NCBI RefSeq assembly: GCF_003334765.1
Contig: NZ_QOWT01000022.1
DNA: 64,000 nt
Direction: 5' to 3' (one strand)
From: Escherichia coli
GTDB lineage: Bacteria; Pseudomonadota; Gammaproteobacteria; Enterobacterales; Enterobacteriaceae
Part shown: in pieces, positions 2,734 to 54,097 of the stretch
Layout: every line of letters starts with the position of its first letter
How positions within the stretch are numbered: the stretch's first letter is position 1
The notes under the pieces: generated by a model
What the model was told of the DNA's origin: nothing
Databases searched by the model: none
The model's input: only the letters and a program-made list of their open reading frames with translations
Made by a program: the position numbers and the translations under genes

Positions 2734-3591
2734 CTACTTTAACCAAATATTATAATCCAATCTTCCTACGTATCTTGAAAAAACAGCCAGAGCAATTGCT
2801 TGCCCTACACTTGTTAATTCAATTCCTTGATAGTTGCTCTTTGAAAATTTTTCTAAAAATGCAGACACATGAGGGGCAACTAACTTAAGATTTGAAATAT
2901 ATGCACTCTTATCTTTTATATCAGTCGGATATTTACTCATAAAATAGTCTTCAACATCCATCCCTAAAAAAGTATTCCATGAACAAGCCCCTGCATATTG
3001 AATGTGATATATCTGGGCTTGAGACAAATTAAACCCATTAGTATACATTGATTCAAAGTTTCTAAAATTGTGCTCCAACAAATCCAATCGAACACCATTA
3101 ACAGGGTCTTTGATCTCAACATTCTTGAGAAGAAAAACTATCGTTATAAGTGATATTTGTTGCTGTGTTAACTTGGGAACGACGGTAACTGCCTCCGTTA
3201 AAACTATATCTCTAAAATCGTCATTGTTATTGGAGACTCGTTCAACTAACAACTGAGAAAGCACATCCATATTAGCTTTCTTTCCCTTCCTGGCTGATGA
3301 CTTTAATGCCTCAGTCAATGTAGCCTGAACGTCCGGATCGCAAAATTTATCAATAATCAATCTATCAACGTTTTTTGTTAAATCCGAAACGACACGCTCT
3401 TCAAAATCTTTTGCATTCTCTTGAGCTGCAGCATAAGCAACATCTTTCAATTTTGGAAACTGATTTTCGAAGAGAATGTTGAATAGTTCTCTAACCTCGG
3501 AAAACGACATCCCTGAAACATTTACATTATTTCCAGCTTGAATTGCATACGAATTATTACCTATTTGTTGCTTTTGCTTATCACTAAACAT
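2734..3591 (-). CDS. Hypothetical protein (285 aa), AT-rich cargo; second gene of a two-gene module
   Basis: Start is preceded by GGAGGA directly after the stop of the upstream small membrane protein gene; no family recognised. Confidence 0.6.
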   Translation of the reverse strand: MFSDKQKQQIGNNSYAIQAGNNVNVSGMSFSEVRELFNILFENQFPKLKDVAYAAAQENAKDFEERVVSDLTKNVDRLIIDKFCDPDVQATLTEALKSSARKGKKANMDVLSQLLVERVSNNNDDFRDIVLTEAVTVVPKLTQQQISLITIVFLLKNVEIKDPVNGVRLDLLEHNFRNFESMYTNGFNLSQAQIYHIQYAGACSWNTFLGMDVEDYFMSKYPTDIKDKSAYISNLKLVAPHVSAFLEKFSKSNYQGIELTSVGQAIALAVFSRYVGRLDYNIWLK

Positions 3592-3600
3592 ATATCCTCC

Positions 3601-3846
3601 TTATTTTTTATCACCTGTATTTATACAATCAATTTTAATATCACCTCTAGCCTGGACAGCAGTTGAATTATCACCAACTGATTGGCTCATAGAATTATAT
3701 TTATTTTTTGTAGTGATAAGTAATCCAGCTAAAGCGCTAACTGCAGCCAAAAATGCAACAATAGAATCAAAACCAGGATCCATATAAAGCCATAATCCTG
3801 CAATCGATGCCAGCATACATGTAATGACTATTGCAAAAATTTTCAT
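3601..3846 (-). CDS. Small membrane protein (81 aa, two predicted TM helices); first gene of the two-gene cargo module
   Basis: ORF with AGGAG upstream; hydrophobic N-terminal two-thirds, polar C-terminal tail. Confidence 0.55.
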   Translation of the reverse strand: MKIFAIVITCMLASIAGLWLYMDPGFDSIVAFLAAVSALAGLLITTKNKYNSMSQSVGDNSTAVQARGDIKIDCINTGDKK

Positions 3847-3914
3847 AAATTCTCCTTCTAATGGAAGTGGTTATACCGAAAACAATTTCCTTTTACAACC
3901 ACGCACAGCGCGCG

Positions 3915-3940
3915 CTCGTATCCCCGCCACGCCTGCCCGC
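3915..3940 (-). other. Candidate cohesive-end (cos)-like sequence of the P2/186 type
   Basis: Minus strand reads GGCAGGCGTGGCGGGGATA; the GGCGTGGCGGGGA core matches the 186/P2 cos overhang as I recall it, and it sits in a GC-rich island between AT-rich cargo. Confidence 0.3.
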
Positions 3941-3983
3941 TTTGTGTAGTGGTTTTCATGCACCTGCATGACATAAGTAAAAG

Positions 3984-4001
3984 CCCGCCAGAACTGGCGG
4001 G
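3984..4001 (-). terminator. Hairpin plus T-run on the minus strand (possible relic phage terminator beside cos)
   Basis: cccgcca-gaac-tggcggg stem-loop followed on the minus strand by CTTTTACTT. Confidence 0.35.
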
Positions 4002-4151
4002 ACTGAGCAAAAACGATCCTTTTGCGATCATTCATTTTCATGCGCTATAGTCATGCAACAAACGCATACGAACCATATGGTTAGATTACTCATCAAGTCA
4101 GATGGATTTTCAGGCAGATTGCCACAGCAATTGTAAAGGAGCGAGATTGAA

Positions 4152-5153
4152 ATGGGTGGAGAGACTTCGGCTATACAACGAGTCGCGGGTAAGATTTCTG
4201 ATGATATTTTCTCAGTGTTCAAATGGGATCGTGCCGCTAGAGCGGACATGAATTGGGATTGTTGCCAAGAGGCTCATTCCAAGAAAACACATCCAAGCGA
4301 TGTTGTATTTTTCTACATAGATCCATATGAGGAGGAAATGGTCTATCTCAACACAGACCTCAAAAGCTATGCAGAAGGTACTATTGGGAAAAAAATAGTC
4401 GAGGGAGCTTTAACATCGCTTGCTTTAGCTACCGAGTGTGCAAATGTCAGTGAAGAATGGCGATTGAAATATGTTCATGATGATTCTTTAGGTTATAACG
4501 TAAGAGGGTTATTATTCTTATATAACCATGATAATTTATATGATAAAGACTTCTATGAGAATATTACAAAAAAATTAGATCACTCATCTATAAATTGCCC
4601 TCCAAACATCAAACTACATTTGCTTGACCCTTATAAAATATCAGATTTGATAAACATATCTTCTGACATAACTAAGTTAATTGGTTCAGGCAAACTTCCT
4701 CAACCTGATAAGTTCACATATTATTATCCAGATCTTTCCCTAACAAGAATAAAGCACCCTATTAATCAGACAACACCTGCAACAATTGAATTATTAACAT
4801 CACCATACATTATAATAAAGCATGAGGCTTTCAGTTGGCTCAGGGATAAAAACCCTGAGGGATATGTTGTTTATTACAATCAACCGGGGGATTCAGTAGA
4901 CGAATTCGTTTACTTCTTTGATATGTTATCAACTTATCAGATATTAACCGAAGGTAAACCAATCGTATTACGCCATTGTCACATTCACCCAAATGAAAAT
5001 GCCATTCATCATTTTGAAAGAGCGAAAAAGAAATACAGCACAGACTGGCTCTTAGGCGAGGATGAAAGACTTTTTCTTAAAATTGACTTCGACAAGACAG
5101 ACAAAATTGTTGTTGAATATAATCTTGAACAAATCGGCATGGAGCAACGATAA
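4152..5153 (+). CDS. Hypothetical protein (333 aa), gene 1 of a three-gene cargo cassette; possible PD-(D/E)xK-like motif
   Basis: AGGAG upstream; AT-rich; FFYIDPYEEEMVYLNTDLK resembles a hhhD...(D/E)xK nuclease core; no Walker A. Confidence 0.7.
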   Translation: MGGETSAIQRVAGKISDDIFSVFKWDRAARADMNWDCCQEAHSKKTHPSDVVFFYIDPYEEEMVYLNTDLKSYAEGTIGKKIVEGALTSLALATECANVSEEWRLKYVHDDSLGYNVRGLLFLYNHDNLYDKDFYENITKKLDHSSINCPPNIKLHLLDPYKISDLINISSDITKLIGSGKLPQPDKFTYYYPDLSLTRIKHPINQTTPATIELLTSPYIIIKHEAFSWLRDKNPEGYVVYYNQPGDSVDEFVYFFDMLSTYQILTEGKPIVLRHCHIHPNENAIHHFERAKKKYSTDWLLGEDERLFLKIDFDKTDKIVVEYNLEQIGMEQR

Positions 5154-6232
5154 TGGCTAAAAAACTATATTTCGCAACTGATAAAAATATTTATGATGCA
5201 TTACATCATAAAAGGATAACCGCTGCAAAGTTGCATGAATTATTGTTGAATCGAGGTGTGTTTTTATCACCAGAACTCGACAAGGAAATACTAATCGAGG
5301 AAATATCCAAACTTCCTCACGGATTTAATGAATTAGAACACATAAAAAAACTGGTCAAAACATATGACCCAAGGGAAAGCACTACTAGTGTGAGCTTCCA
5401 AACCTCAACAAATCAGGCCGAATTAAAAAGTGCTGCTGAAGCACTAAAAAAAACATGCTCCCCTAGTAAAGGTCAAAGCCTGAATATTGTAGCTAAAAAA
5501 GATGGCTCGCTTACAGTAGAATACAAATATGAAGAAATAGACCTGTCTAAAACTGCATTACGTCAGATCGACAAGCGGAATGTTATAATAGAACTTCGCC
5601 CTGGAGCTGACAAAGTTGAAGTACGTATGCCTCAAAACCCCGAGGCAAAAAAAGTTATTGAGAGCTTGCAAAACGAGCTATCTAAAATCAAGTCCGAACC
5701 TATCGAGCGCTTCGAAATATCATTACTAGCAATAACTGATCCTACATTGCGAAGTCAGTTTTTTCAGGAATTAATGAATGGTCTACGCGGTTATGAGACT
5801 GATGACGTAACAAAAGTCGAATTAAATCGCAGTACTGATGCTAGTGAGGATGAAGACAAGGAAGAAACTATTGATACCGGATTTGTTAAGAAAGCCGTCC
5901 TTAATGGTGAAGGGGTAAATAGTTCAGCTATATTTTCTCAACTACATGAGAAAGGTTATTATATCGGGCGTATTGCATGGTCTTCAAAGCCGACAAGTGG
6001 AATTGGAGACAGAATCAACGTCGAAGCATTTTTCAAAGACTCAGAAAAATGCTGTGACTTTGCCTATCAAATTAAAGGTATAAACAATCAAAAAGAAGAC
6101 GGTTTCAATGTAACCATTCGCGCGGCAACGGCACAAGAGAAAAAACATATTAGTGAATTAATTGAGTCCGCCGCTGAAAATGCCTATAATATAATAATAG
6201 GATCAGAGGTGAACGAAGATGAAAAAGGTTAA
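5153..6232 (+). CDS. Hypothetical protein (359 aa), gene 2 of the three-gene cassette
   Basis: ATG overlaps the gene 1 stop (TAATG at 5151-5155); GGAG 8 nt upstream; acidic patch SEDEDKEE; no recognisable family. Confidence 0.7.
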   Translation: MAKKLYFATDKNIYDALHHKRITAAKLHELLLNRGVFLSPELDKEILIEEISKLPHGFNELEHIKKLVKTYDPRESTTSVSFQTSTNQAELKSAAEALKKTCSPSKGQSLNIVAKKDGSLTVEYKYEEIDLSKTALRQIDKRNVIIELRPGADKVEVRMPQNPEAKKVIESLQNELSKIKSEPIERFEISLLAITDPTLRSQFFQELMNGLRGYETDDVTKVELNRSTDASEDEDKEETIDTGFVKKAVLNGEGVNSSAIFSQLHEKGYYIGRIAWSSKPTSGIGDRINVEAFFKDSEKCCDFAYQIKGINNQKEDGFNVTIRAATAQEKKHISELIESAAENAYNIIIGSEVNEDEKG

Positions 6233-6902
6233 ATGGCTTAAGTTAAACATACGGCTTGAGTTTGAAACAGCCGTTAGACGTCTTTCTCTTGATTCTTTTA
6301 CAGAGGATAAAGGGAAAGGGTTCATTTTTGATAAAATACGCCATGATTTTGCAAATGGTCGCTTTGTCGAGCGTATTGTTTATCATGATAAAATATTAAG
6401 CTTTGACGGAAGCGAAACTACCGTTGAAAGAATCGAATATCGCACCACAAATTTTAGCGTGGCTTTAGACTCTCTTCCTGTAATGCAGATTACTAACCCA
6501 CCCAGAACTTTAAAGCCTTTTTCGCAGGCTTTGGTAAAAAATCTTGGCTTAGGTGTTAGTTTGGAAGAAATTGACATAAACCCTATAGACTGGCTTAATG
6601 AAATATCTTCAAGTGTAAATATCAATTTAACACAACTTGATATTTCAAGGGTTAGAGTTTCTGATTACGCCACAGCTAAAATGCAAATAATTGGCAGCAA
6701 TGATCTTAGGAAGTATTATAAAGAAGAATTAGAGGGTAAAAAAATAAGAATTGACAGGCTTGTTTGCTCTGTTAATTCATTAGAATATTCCGGTAAGCTC
6801 AAGATCACCAATAGCGGCCTTGCTTATATTGATGTTAGAAATGAGAATGAGTTTACGAAAATCGTTTTTGATACGTTAAAAAAAGTCACCCTTCAATCAT
6901 AG
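6219..6902 (+). CDS. Hypothetical protein (227 aa), gene 3 of the three-gene cassette
   Basis: Start lies 14 nt inside the end of gene 2 (translational coupling); GAGGTG upstream; no recognisable family. Confidence 0.65.
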   Translation: MKKVKWLKLNIRLEFETAVRRLSLDSFTEDKGKGFIFDKIRHDFANGRFVERIVYHDKILSFDGSETTVERIEYRTTNFSVALDSLPVMQITNPPRTLKPFSQALVKNLGLGVSLEEIDINPIDWLNEISSSVNINLTQLDISRVRVSDYATAKMQIIGSNDLRKYYKEELEGKKIRIDRLVCSVNSLEYSGKLKITNSGLAYIDVRNENEFTKIVFDTLKKVTLQS

Positions 6903-6958
6903 ATGGCTTATAAGGAGTTACTTCACCTAACGCCTCGCCTTACTCGTTGTTCAACCTC

Positions 6959-6989
6959 GTAGGCGTCAGAATCAAGTTCTGACGCCTAC
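6959..6989. terminator. Perfect 13-bp inverted repeat hairpin between the cassette and the convergent DinI-like gene
   Basis: gtaggcgtcagaa-tcaag-ttctgacgcctac; no strong T-run on either side, so function as a terminator is uncertain. Confidence 0.35.
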
Positions 6990-6997
6990 AATGTTTC

Positions 6998-7231
6998 TTA
7001 ATGCAGCCAGCTATCGTCCTCCCAGACCTGCTGCATTATTTCCATCACTCGCTTTTTGTCTTCATCCAGTTTTAACCCGCTCAGCTCAACGCCATTGGCG
7101 CTGCCCTTACGGATACGAATTGCTGTTTTGGGATACAGAGGGCGCAAATTACGGTAAAGCTCGGATTCAAGGGCGTCCAGGGTAGACTGGCTAATCTTCT
7201 GCTCTTTATCGATCATTATTTCAATGCGCAT
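6998..7231 (-). CDS. DinI-like protein (77 aa from the MRIEIM start), resembling the C-terminal part of a 186 Tum-type module
   Basis: MRIEIMIDKEQKISQSTLDALESELYRNLRPLYPKTAIRI...VWEDDSWLH resembles DinI; the track ORF (7303 start) is probably over-extended. Confidence 0.6.
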   Translation of the reverse strand: MRIEIMIDKEQKISQSTLDALESELYRNLRPLYPKTAIRIRKGSANGVELSGLKLDEDKKRVMEIMQQVWEDDSWLH

Positions 7232-7241
7232 AAAAGCCACC

Positions 7242-7430
7242 TCAGCTGATGACATCCATTGAGCGGTTGTATTCGTGGGTTCTGATTTTTGCCATGAGTT
7301 CATCTGTCAGTTCAGAAACCCACTGCAGAGCCAGCCCCTTCTCTTCATCACTACACTCACTAGCCGCTACAAGCTTAAGAAAAAAATCAATGCGCTGGAG
7401 CTTCAAAGACTCCAAAAAATAGTCCTGCAT
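7242..7430 (-). CDS. Small protein (62 aa), first gene after the LexA-controlled promoter; possible Tum-like antirepressor part
   Basis: AGGAGG 4 nt upstream of the ATG; directly downstream of the LexA box; different frame and overlapping the DinI-like ORF. Confidence 0.4.
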   Translation of the reverse strand: MQDYFLESLKLQRIDFFLKLVAASECSDEEKGLALQWVSELTDELMAKIRTHEYNRSMDVIS

Positions 7431-7471
7431 CTTTCCTCCTATGACACCAAAGCAACACTGTATACATAACC

Positions 7472-7489
7472 ACTGTTTGTATTTACAGT
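7472..7489 (-). promoter_or_regulatory. LexA operator (SOS box) overlapping the -10 of a strong promoter for the Tum/DinI-like genes
   Basis: aCTGT-ttgtattt-ACAGta, a perfect CTGT-N8-ACAG; on the minus strand TTTACA (-35) and TATACT (-10) flank it. Confidence 0.7.
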
Positions 7490-7581
7490 ATATAATAATA
7501 TTACTGATGTAAAACGTTTTTTACGTTCATCAGCCTGATATGCCTGGTATTATTAAGAGCACGAATTGTTAACCTGCGTAA

Positions 7582-30174: not shown

Positions 30175-30351
30175 GTTAATACATTTAACAAAATAACTAT
30201 CTGAACGCTGTGCCGCTGCAAAAATTGTCCCTTGCTGCGGCTTTTTAACCAAATTACCCGATTCTACAAAATCAGCAGAAAGTTACAACACTTGCTTAGG
30301 GCAATAATTTCCTGTGAGGTGATTACCCTTTCAAGCAATATTCAAACGTAA

Positions 30352-31263
30352 CTATCCTTTAATTTTCGGATCCAGCGCATCGCGTAAACCATCGCCCAAC
30401 AAATTGAACGCCAGTACGGTCAGAAAAATAGCCAGGGCCGGAAAAACAGCGACATGCGGCGCGATAACCATATCCGCTCGAGCCTCATTGAGCATTGCTC
30501 CCCACTCTGGTGTCGGCGGCTGCGCACCGAGGCCGAGAAATGAGAGGCTGGCGGCAGAGATAATCGAGGTACCAATGCGCATGGTGAAAAACACCACGAT
30601 AGAAGAGACGGTCCCAGGCAGGATATGACGCAACAAAACGGTCATATCGCTGGCACCAATACTGCGTGCTGACTCAATAAAGGTTTGCTGTTTCAACACC
30701 AGCGTGTTGCCGCGCACCAGGCGGGCAAACGCGGGGATGGAAAAAATGGCGACTGCAATAATCACGTTAGCAATGCCGCTTCCCAACACCGCAACAACAG
30801 CGATCGCCAGTAAAATACCCGGGAAGGCAAACAGCACATCGCAAATGCGCATGATCAGCCGATCCCACCAGCCTTCATAATATCCAGTGAGCAAGCCCAG
30901 CAACGTCCCGATCGCCGCACCGATAAACACGGCAAACACGCCCGCCGCCAGCGAGATTTGCGCACCAACCAGGACACGGCTGAAAATGTCACGCCCCAGT
31001 GAATCGACGCCAAACCAGTGCTGCAAAGAAGGTCCGTTATTCAGATTGTCATAATCAAAATAATTTTCGGCGTCATAGGGAGCGATCCAGCGTGCAAAAA
31101 TGGCCACCACAATCAATAAAATAACGAATAATGCGGCGGTCATCGCCATATGCTGACGGCGAAATCGTCGCCAGAATTCATGCCACGGTGTACGTACCTG
31201 GTCAGGTTTGACCAGTGGCATGGCGTTTAACACCGCCTGACGTCGCCAGTTAAATAGTCGCAT
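30352..31263 (-). CDS. gsiD: Glutathione ABC transporter permease GsiD
   Basis: 303-aa permease in gsiABCD synteny. Confidence 0.85.
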
Positions 31264-45439: not shown

Positions 45440-45537
45440 GCCTGATGCGGCGTTAACGCCTTATCCGGCCTACAAAGTCCTGCAGATTCAATATATTGCA
45501 GGTACTGCGTAGGCCTGATAAGCGTAGCGCATCAGGC
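45440..45537. repeat. REP/BIME element (two inverted REP units) between ybiU and ybiT
   Basis: gcctgatgcggcgttaacgccttatccggcctac and the inverted copy gtaggcctgataagcgtagcgcatcaggc. Confidence 0.6.
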
Positions 45538-45597
45538 TATTTTGCATTTGTCATCAGCCGCCGTCACCCCGACAGTATCGGGGTGACGGATAATCAC

Positions 45598-53943: not shown

Positions 53944-54097
53944 ATTTACATTTCTGCATGGTTATGCATAACCATGCAGAATTTCTCGCTACTTTTCCTC
54001 TACACCGTCTTTATATATCGAATTATGCAAAAGCATATTTATTCCGAAAATTCCTGGCGAGCAGATAAATAAGAATTGTTCTTATCAATATATCTAA

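Follow-up and report, generated by a model that had tools for sequence, protein, structure and literature searches.

Organization of the locus

The window, i.e. the whole 64-kb stretch of E. coli DNA that was analyzed, is 100% identical to the prophage of E. coli strain H3, which is of the P2/186 type. The prophage genes follow each other in the order terminase and portal, two accessory genes (2734-3846), a cos-like 19-mer, a plus-strand cassette of three genes, a hairpin, and then a series of minus-strand genes consisting of dinI, orf62, gpA (7582-9996), Dam, and TraR. The features on either side of the hairpin are as follows.

4063-6926, plus strand: 3HP defense cassette including its own upstream region (Hp1 4152-5153, Hp2 5153-6232, Hp3 6219-6902)
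6998-7231, minus strand: DinI-like gene, 77 aa, taken from the RefSeq annotation of the identical H3 locus (phrog_189)
7242-7430, minus strand: orf62 (phrog_698), first gene of the SOS operon
7471-7490, minus strand: LexA-box-like site tACTGTaaatacaaACAGTg, CTGT-N8-ACAG, upstream of orf62-dinI, read from the sequence

PADLOC assigns the cassette genes as full-length matches to Hp1, Hp2, and Hp3 (E 1e-157 to 1e-248). The cargo is thus the known 3HP system, whose three genes have unknown domains and which Rousset et al. 2022 (PMC9122126) described from the P2 hotspot as protective against P1. Beyond the hairpin, the DinI-like protein is 41% identical (E 1e-24) to residues 71-145, the C-terminal half, of 186 Tum, and the arrangement of the LexA-box-like site matches the annotated p95/LexA site of phage 186, as well as that of the viral contig L169. 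The LexA-box-like site and the DinI/Tum homology together indicate that orf62-dinI is an SOS operon like p95-tum of 186, which bears out an earlier suggestion that an SOS module converges on the cassette. The function of tum is apparently split here into orf62 and the 77-aa DinI-like protein. Orf62 itself has no match in Pfam or NCBIfam, and the idea that it is the N-terminal half of Tum was dropped because there is no BLASTP similarity. Between the gpA stop and the LexA box, the sequence ctgatgaacgtaaaaaacgttttacatcag forms an imperfect hairpin with a T-rich run behind it (7500-7545, minus strand) and may end the early replication operon, in which case the SOS operon would be a separate transcription unit.

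The record of phage 186 (NC_001317) shows the order p95 with its LexA site, tum, t95a, orf97, and t95b, in which t95a is annotated as "partial termination of p95 transcript" and t95b as "p95 transcript terminator".

A second accessory locus lies at 2734-3846 on the minus strand, between the portal gene and cos. It encodes a 285-aa protein of the LPO_1073/Vpar_1526 family (NCBIfam NF045477, 243 bits) and an apparently hydrophobic protein of 81 aa, with no PADLOC match, and together they could make up an uncharacterized defense or exclusion pair, occupying a second insertion point beyond cos. A perfect 12-bp hairpin, TAAAGTAGGGCA..TGCCCTACTTTA (2713-2741), which separates the portal stop from the convergent LPO_1073-family gene, looks like a bidirectional terminator.

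The hairpin between Hp3 and dinI is far above a chance palindrome

The hairpin is flanked by the stop codons of Hp3 (6900-6902) and of the DinI-like gene (6998-7000, minus strand).

6959-6989: perfect inverted repeat of 13 bp, with arm gtaggcgtcagaa (6959-6971), loop tcaag (6972-6976), and arm ttctgacgcctac (6977-6989)
6957-6991, minus strand (dinI-sense): stem-loop of 15 bp, with the 13 perfect pairs, two basal pairs, and the loop CUUGA

The two additional basal pairs, U6990.G6958 and U6991-A6957, extend the stem from 13 to 15 bp on the minus strand. Folded as a 71-nt RNA, the hairpin has an energy of -27.1 kcal/mol on the plus strand (z -6.6) and of -27.9 kcal/mol on the minus strand (z -5.2), a stability that was matched by none of 200 shuffles. 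Only four distinct perfect stems of at least 12 bp with loops of 3-8 nt exist in the whole window, and a scripted census of stems of at least 10 bp found 14 registers versus a mean of 0.25 in mononucleotide shuffles. The hairpin is therefore real and far above a chance palindrome. The preliminary description of this DNA, made from the sequence alone, had the 13-bp stem, the tcaag loop, and the placement between the two stop codons exactly. It had also stated that there are no flanking T-runs, which is essentially right. Directly 3' of the stem, the minus strand reads GAGGUUGAACAACGAG, with no U-tract, and the plus strand reads AAUGUUUCUU, in which no canonical U run directly adjoins the stem, although AAUGUUUCUU passes a lenient terminator consensus scan.

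Three further palindromes are found outside the prophage region studied. One has perfect 15-nt arms, TTCTGCATGGTTATG/CATAACCATGCAGAA (53952-53981), another pairs perfectly over 12 bp around a 5-nt loop (~45561-45590), and the third, GCCTGATGCGGCGTTAAC.. (45440-45469), is REP-like by look.

The hairpin forms the folded core of a 76-nt phage module

Alignments of related loci and a covariance model show that conservation extends well past the stem, over the following elements.

6927-7002, minus strand: complete conserved module of 76 nt
6943-6958, minus strand: block 1, GAGGTTGAACAACGAG (consensus AAGGTTGAACAACGAG), the single-stranded 3' flank of the hairpin
6927-6938, minus strand: block 2, GCGAGGCGTTAG, the final conserved backbone bases

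Read in the dinI-sense direction, the module consists of the stop codon, (g/c)AAACG.., the 15-bp hairpin with its variable arms, block 1, a variable spacer of 6-8 nt, and block 2, after which the sequence becomes locus-specific. The version of the window between stop codon and hairpin is (g)AAAC(g)UUG. Loci were sampled in two ways (80 via the DinI protein, to which were added the true modules among 120 found via a conserved 14-mer), and the covariance model was built from 70 distinct modules. In the window, this model finds a single copy, at 6927-7002 on the minus strand (93.6 bits, E 3e-27). SopEPhi of S. Typhimurium 4/74 (L003) carries the module with a score of 74.9 bits. The model also recovers diverged copies in the loci L005, L006, L117, and L161, and finds no module in the right-end region of P2 (A to cos) or in three DinI loci without the tail.

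The distribution of the module is that of a phage component. As assessed by BLAST, 1072 complete E. coli genomes match window positions 6903-7303, and 701 of 5426 E. coli genomes have a match that starts at ~6924-6927 and runs through the hairpin into dinI, at 85-88% identity and with other cargo. Loci that carry DarTG, a KAP NTPase, DprA/PRTase, an AAA ATPase, or small hypothetical genes share a common tail from the dinI stop to GAGGCGTTAG, and the same tail is present in Klebsiella, Salmonella (including SopEPhi), and Yersinia phages of the phage collection. Phage 186 itself carries the whole module, unannotated, between orf97 and t95b (~30337-30412 of the record), as CCGGTGCTGAAActcgcTTTCAGTGCTGG c GGGGTTGAACAACGAG ccccgc GAGGCGTTAG, with three G-U pairs on the p95-sense strand. 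The hairpin is thus phage backbone, not cargo, and makes up the folded core of a larger 76-nt module that is conserved in 186-type prophages from four genera, Escherichia, Salmonella, Klebsiella, and Yersinia.

Whatever the last gene of the SOS operon is, the module follows it and closes the operon. It starts 0-3 nt past the stop of that gene (about 8 nt past the stop in the case of 186 orf97). Among 161 module-bearing loci, the architecture is DinI/Tum-module in 129, DinI-module-orf69-module in 4, Tum-orf69-module in 4, Tum-orf97-module in 2, and orf69-module-orf97-module in 1, and there are a few others. Five viral contigs carry two copies (L169, at 3704-4184, L147, L183, L186, and L194), either as DinI-module-orf69-module or as orf69-module-orf97-module, a cassette-like repeat of a gene plus 3' module. 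The module can be duplicated when material with its own copy joins after GTTAG. The module is found together with the SOS operon, and the A-cos region of P2, a non-inducible phage, lacks it. P2 Orf91, considered as a possible DinI homologue, is a DUF3850 protein in a region without module. Nor is the hairpin a homologue of 186 t95a, which has an unrelated sequence (accccatg..catggggt followed by tgttttgt), and the 186 module comes after orf97 instead. A search of Rfam 15 gave no match overlapping 6927-7002, even at E <= 10. No Rfam family thus covers the module, even the heavily annotated 186 record leaves it out, and the papers on the hotspot discussed below are silent about it.

The two single-stranded blocks are conserved in sequence, unlike the arms. 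Nucleotide diversity, computed on loci found independently of the blocks, is 0.067 in block 1 and 0.054 in block 2, versus 0.21 at third-codon positions of dinI and 0.61 in the first four bases of the spacer. The blocks are thus 3-4 times more conserved than neighboring synonymous sites. A coding explanation is ruled out by the length of the spacer, which varies between 5 and 7 nt, and by the covarying arms. A second conserved hairpin (GGUU..AGCC near GAACAACG) was also rejected, as it appears only in the folds of 186 and L012, is weak or absent in the window and in Cartapus, and is not predicted by RNAalifold. Conservation of the blocks would not be explained by a stabilizing role of the stem, and suggests a sequence-specific partner. 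A search for such a partner in the sequence returned none. Neither block recurs in the window, directly or as its complement, more often than chance would give, and 5'-3' pairing of the blocks with the operon leader is weaker than in shuffled controls.

Several known classes of elements were considered and set aside. The module is not a REP/RAYT palindrome, which would be imperfect, headed by GTAG, and repeated many times in a genome, since the arm starts with GTAG in the window and with GCTG, GCGG, GCCA, CCGG, and others in relatives, and there is a single copy in the window. The RfaH ops (JUMPstart) element has the consensus GGCGGTAGnnTG. Block 2 reads GGCGTTAG in nearly all 70 modules, never GGCGGTAG, and is followed by variable bases. 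The boxA consensus is CGCTCTTTA / TGCTCTTTAACAA. Block 1 matches its AACAA half only (7/13 by eye), with an unrelated 5' half, which argues against a nut-like boxA/boxB. LexA and IHF motifs were rejected as the identity of the module.

The stem is conserved by compensatory change and favors the dinI-sense strand

The structure of the hairpin is conserved by compensatory change. In 36 tails from the DinI-ascertained loci, 92.2% of cells are paired versus 39-51% with slid partners, and both sides have changed in 10 of the 15 pairs. In the 70 distinct modules, these values are 94.0% versus 33-49%, with both sides changed in 13 of the 15 pairs. In these 70 modules, the covariation score is 0.647 versus 0.312 in column shuffles, none of 500 of which scored as high, and RNAalifold independently predicts the same helix.

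Wobble pairs are distributed unevenly between the two strands. Pairs that are G-U only on the dinI-sense strand (A.C on the plus strand) account for 102 cells at 13 of the 15 pair positions, versus 20 cells for the reverse case, 11 of which are at one single pair position. The folding energies of the sense and antisense RNA are -25.7 and -15.4 kcal/mol for the 186 stem, and -19.8 and -10.0 or -25.0 and -16.5 kcal/mol in two other clades. The stem of the window is equally stable on both strands, and one large clade is slightly reversed, with an A.C mismatch on the sense strand and G-U on the antisense strand. Considering the wobble asymmetry and the energies of the two strands, selection favors the dinI-sense (minus) strand rather than the strand that encodes the cargo. 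With DNA parameters, the advantage of the sense strand is in the same direction, and RNA cannot be told apart from single-stranded DNA on these grounds.

Read-through in relatives argues against a strong terminator

The stem has the composition of an intrinsic terminator, being a G+C-rich stem-loop of 13-15 bp with 7 G-C pairs and an energy of -24 to -28 kcal/mol. It is not followed by a U run. The sense strand continues with GAGGUUGAACAA, and in 64 of 70 modules GGTTGAACAA is directly 3' of the sense-strand stem, with no U-tract. In addition, transcription has to cross the hairpin in many relatives. In 38 of the 161 loci, which fall into 10 diverged junction classes, a phrog_2100 gene always begins 2-3 nt past the module, with the GAGG of block 2 as its Shine-Dalgarno sequence, and this leaves no room for a promoter. 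Phrog_2100, which is probably co-induced with the SOS operon, is a family of 85-88 aa proteins (MGxKDSNYQVVYRG..., e.g. L002 789-1049, Cartapus CARTA_46) with no Pfam or NCBIfam match. The 186 annotation places the end of the p95 transcript at t95b, past the module. The missing sense-strand U-tract and the obligate read-through in 38 relatives indicate that the hairpin is not a classical terminator, and a strong terminator is disfavored. Because relatives require read-through, read-through transcription with no 3' ends at the hairpin, named in the preliminary description as a refutation, would not speak against the element. Two loci that lack the module, L076 and L007, have by eye a terminator-like stem and T-run after dinI instead, which suggests that this slot needs a defined 3' end.

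Could the hairpin nevertheless be an intrinsic terminator, possibly bidirectional, that ends the convergent 3HP operon and prevents antisense transcription into dinI and gpA? It is the top match of the consensus scan (14 pairs, tail AATGTTTCTT), no other terminator-like structure exists between the Hp3 stop (6902) and dinI, and the stem is near-perfect on both strands in 3HP-bearing relatives. However, the U-rich tail of the plus strand, AAUGUUUCUU, begins 3-4 nt past the stem and is interrupted, and in relatives it is not conserved (2-6 T in 10 nt), and the stop codon and C terminus of dinI limit how it can vary. Moreover, the 102 wobble cells are A.C mismatches on that strand, so that selection favors the other one, and in three clades the antisense stem falls short of the sense stem by 9-10 kcal/mol. 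Finally, the element predates the insertion of 3HP and is present with co-directional cargo or with none. We consider this explanation unlikely. Termination on the plus strand would be at most a secondary role, co-opted in the 3HP phage, and not the selected function.

A cis-regulatory leader, in which the hairpin and blocks control translation of, or read-through into, phrog_2100 or other co-directional cargo, is similarly doubtful. Ribosomes would bind at block 2, and the conserved blocks would be recognized by a protein or small RNA. Both blocks are indeed constrained in sequence, and the spacing between GAGG and the ATG, 2-3 nt past GTTAG, is that of a Shine-Dalgarno sequence across all 10 junction classes. 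The blocks are, however, equally conserved where no ORF follows (the ~50 loci with an empty site, 186, and the window, which has no downstream co-directional gene), and neither anti-Shine-Dalgarno pairing nor a conserved alternative helix was found in the module.

The module forms the left edge of the cos-proximal hotspot

The window is an instance of the P2-like cos-proximal hotspot (PMC9122126), i.e. the gpA-gpQ interval beside cos. Rousset et al. 2022 and a 2026 preprint (10.64898/2026.02.27.708500) delimit this hotspot by core genes, and neither mentions a hairpin, a terminator, or DinI, whereas here the edge is resolved to a 76-nt element. The cos side of the interval contains the following features.

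3934-4062, minus strand: cos-proximal conserved block with GCATG repeats, which directly follows the module in empty-site relatives
4001-3984, minus strand: canonical terminator, CCCGCCAGTTCTGGCGGG and then CTTTTAC, equivalent in position to 186 t95b
3915-3933, minus strand: cos-like 19-mer GGCGTGGCGGGGATACGAG, identical in every checked related locus that has it

The first 13 nt of GGCGTGGCGGGGATACGAG presumably match the cohesive end of 186. Since the real cos-like 19-mer is at 3915-3933, GGCGAGGCG in the tail was rejected as a relative of the cos cohesive end.

Comparison of occupied and empty loci locates the junctions. On the module side, there are 63 distinct 18-nt junction sequences, all beginning 0-3 nt past GTTAG. 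In the window, the boundary is at 6926/6927, right after GAGGCGTTAG and 32 nt from the hairpin on the cargo side. The preliminary description had proposed that the hairpin itself may mark the insertion boundary, and comparison with relatives lacking the cassette moves that boundary away from it. The hairpin is kept with other cargo or with an empty site. In the ~50 empty loci, GTTAG is followed by TGCTGTT, by GTGCATG..GCATG..GCATG, and by the terminator CCCGCCAGAACTGGCGGG and CTTTTG, with the cos-like 19-mer 132 nt away. The three GCATG repeats of the empty-site reference could be terminase-binding sites. In 61 of 71 occupied loci, homology on the cos side resumes within a few nt of the start of the empty-site block, ~7 nt past the module in the empty-site reference. 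In the other 10, it resumes deeper in the block. The presence of the same block in the window, at 4062-3934, indicates that 3HP occupies ~4063-6926. The module and its flanking blocks form the left edge of the cos-proximal defense hotspot and, as read from these alignments, the hotspot is a ~7-nt unconstrained gap between the module and the cos-proximal block.

Such precise junctions raise the question whether the module directs the insertion of cargo after GTTAG, as a docking signal acting as single-stranded DNA or RNA-templated, i.e. an integrase-independent counterpart of the attC/attI sites of integrons. How cargo integrates at the hotspot is stated to be unknown (preprint 10.64898/2026.02.27.708500), and five loci carry the gene plus module unit twice. 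In the consensus of attC, R''(RYYYAAC) and R'(GTTRRRY) boxes and extrahelical bases go with a linked IntI integrase. Like attC, the module folds from an inverted repeat at the point where a gene ends, beside a precise junction of unrelated cassettes, it forms occasional tandem gene plus element units, and its GTTAG resembles the GTTRRRY core. However, the defining features of attC are absent. The module has no R''/R' boxes (its 5' end is (g/c)AAACG, not RYYYAAC), a perfect or near-perfect stem with no conserved extrahelical bases, conserved sequence outside the stem, bases past GTTAG that are not restricted to RRY, and no integron integrase nearby or any other linked recombinase gene. Eight cos-side junctions inspected by eye gave no target-site duplication; GCGTT, which is at both ends of the cargo in the window, is not repeated in the seven others. 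The scatter of the cos-side junctions in 10 of 71 loci is as expected for illegitimate joining trimmed by selection, and strand-asymmetric wobbles are unexpected for a double-stranded DNA site. Constraint on both flanks and homologous swapping would suffice without a dedicated site, and recombination has been argued to swap functional defense systems rapidly at the hotspot (preprint 10.64898/2026.02.27.708500). We regard a docking signal as quite improbable. If true, it would explain the fast swapping of cargo by P2/186-like phages at a fixed point.

A candidate stabilizer of the SOS message

The reading that we favor, and to which we give about an even chance, is that the hairpin is a stem-loop in the 3'-UTR or between cistrons, on the SOS-sense strand, that stabilizes or insulates the orf62-dinI/tum message. 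Action at the level of RNA and a stabilizer/insulator mechanism are the most likely interpretation of the anatomy of the module. The stem, 9 nt past the dinI stop, shows covariation and a wobble bias toward the sense strand, as expected for this class. The preliminary description had thus been correct in discounting a classical terminator, and the stabilizing or insulating role that it proposed is the best-supported reading, at the strength given here.

The stem-loop would stop exonucleases that degrade the message from its 3' end, or would set the position of a processed end, while some polymerase would still pass it. The antirepressor/DinI message would thereby gain a fixed stable end whatever cargo sits downstream, and this end would be the same with a terminator 100 nt away, with a co-directional gene, or with 2.9 kb of convergent cargo. 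In the latter case, Rho would probably terminate the read-through RNA, which is not translated, and this RNA would then be trimmed back. Rho-terminated transcripts are reportedly typically trimmed back to a protective stem-loop. On the other hand, empty-site phages and 186 have a canonical terminator hairpin only ~100 nt downstream, so that a separate protective hairpin looks redundant there.

Stem-loops that stabilize mRNA include the REP element in malE-malF and the protective ends of Rho-terminated transcripts. The hairpin resembles these in being a stable stem-loop a few nt past a stop codon, without U-tract, compatible with read-through, and conserved in structure rather than in the sequence of its arms. 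It differs from them in being single-copy and phage-specific, and in having two conserved single-stranded blocks that are not needed there. With the t95a/t95b region of 186, it shares the logic of a LexA-controlled promoter, a tum/dinI-like gene, and a structure on the 3' side, ahead of the next gene or of cos. The annotated partial terminator t95a allows read-through to orf97, as we infer for the hairpin, but t95a and t95b are canonical stems with T-runs and of unrelated sequence, whereas the module has no U-tract. In BTP5, a 186-like prophage of Salmonella, tum ranks first in abundance among the prophage transcripts, and the authors suspected post-transcriptional control (PMC7067206). This abundance is compatible with a stabilizer, without being specific to it.

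A signal in the single-stranded DNA displaced by gpA rolling-circle replication, such as a site for priming or primosome assembly about 0.8-1.8 kb downstream of ori, is very improbable. In its favor, the preferred strand is gpA-sense (by analogy with phiX174 gpA, presumably the strand that is nicked and displaced), G.T destabilizes DNA less than any other mismatch (with the sense advantage persisting under DNA parameters), and such sites look similar, with a hairpin and then a conserved single-stranded stretch on its 3' side. However, P2 replicates likewise without a module in its right-end region, the module tracks the SOS operon and not ori, RNA accommodates the three G.T pairs of the 186 stem better (-25.7 kcal/mol) than DNA does (-13.6 kcal/mol), and there is no resemblance to the nick sites of P2 or 186. 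A gpA nick site or second ori was rejected likewise, the ori sequences of both phages being unlike the module.

Taken together, these findings make the hairpin part of the phage's own SOS-induction operon, not an element brought with the defense genes, and it is among the few non-coding elements in such phages with clear covariation support. The module provides a nucleotide-precise anchor for the edge of the hotspot (0-3 nt past GAGGCGTTAG), which aids in delimiting and mining cargo. If the element does control the stability of, or read-through from, the tum message, this would bear on the tightness of prophage induction and on the co-induction of cargo with the SOS response.
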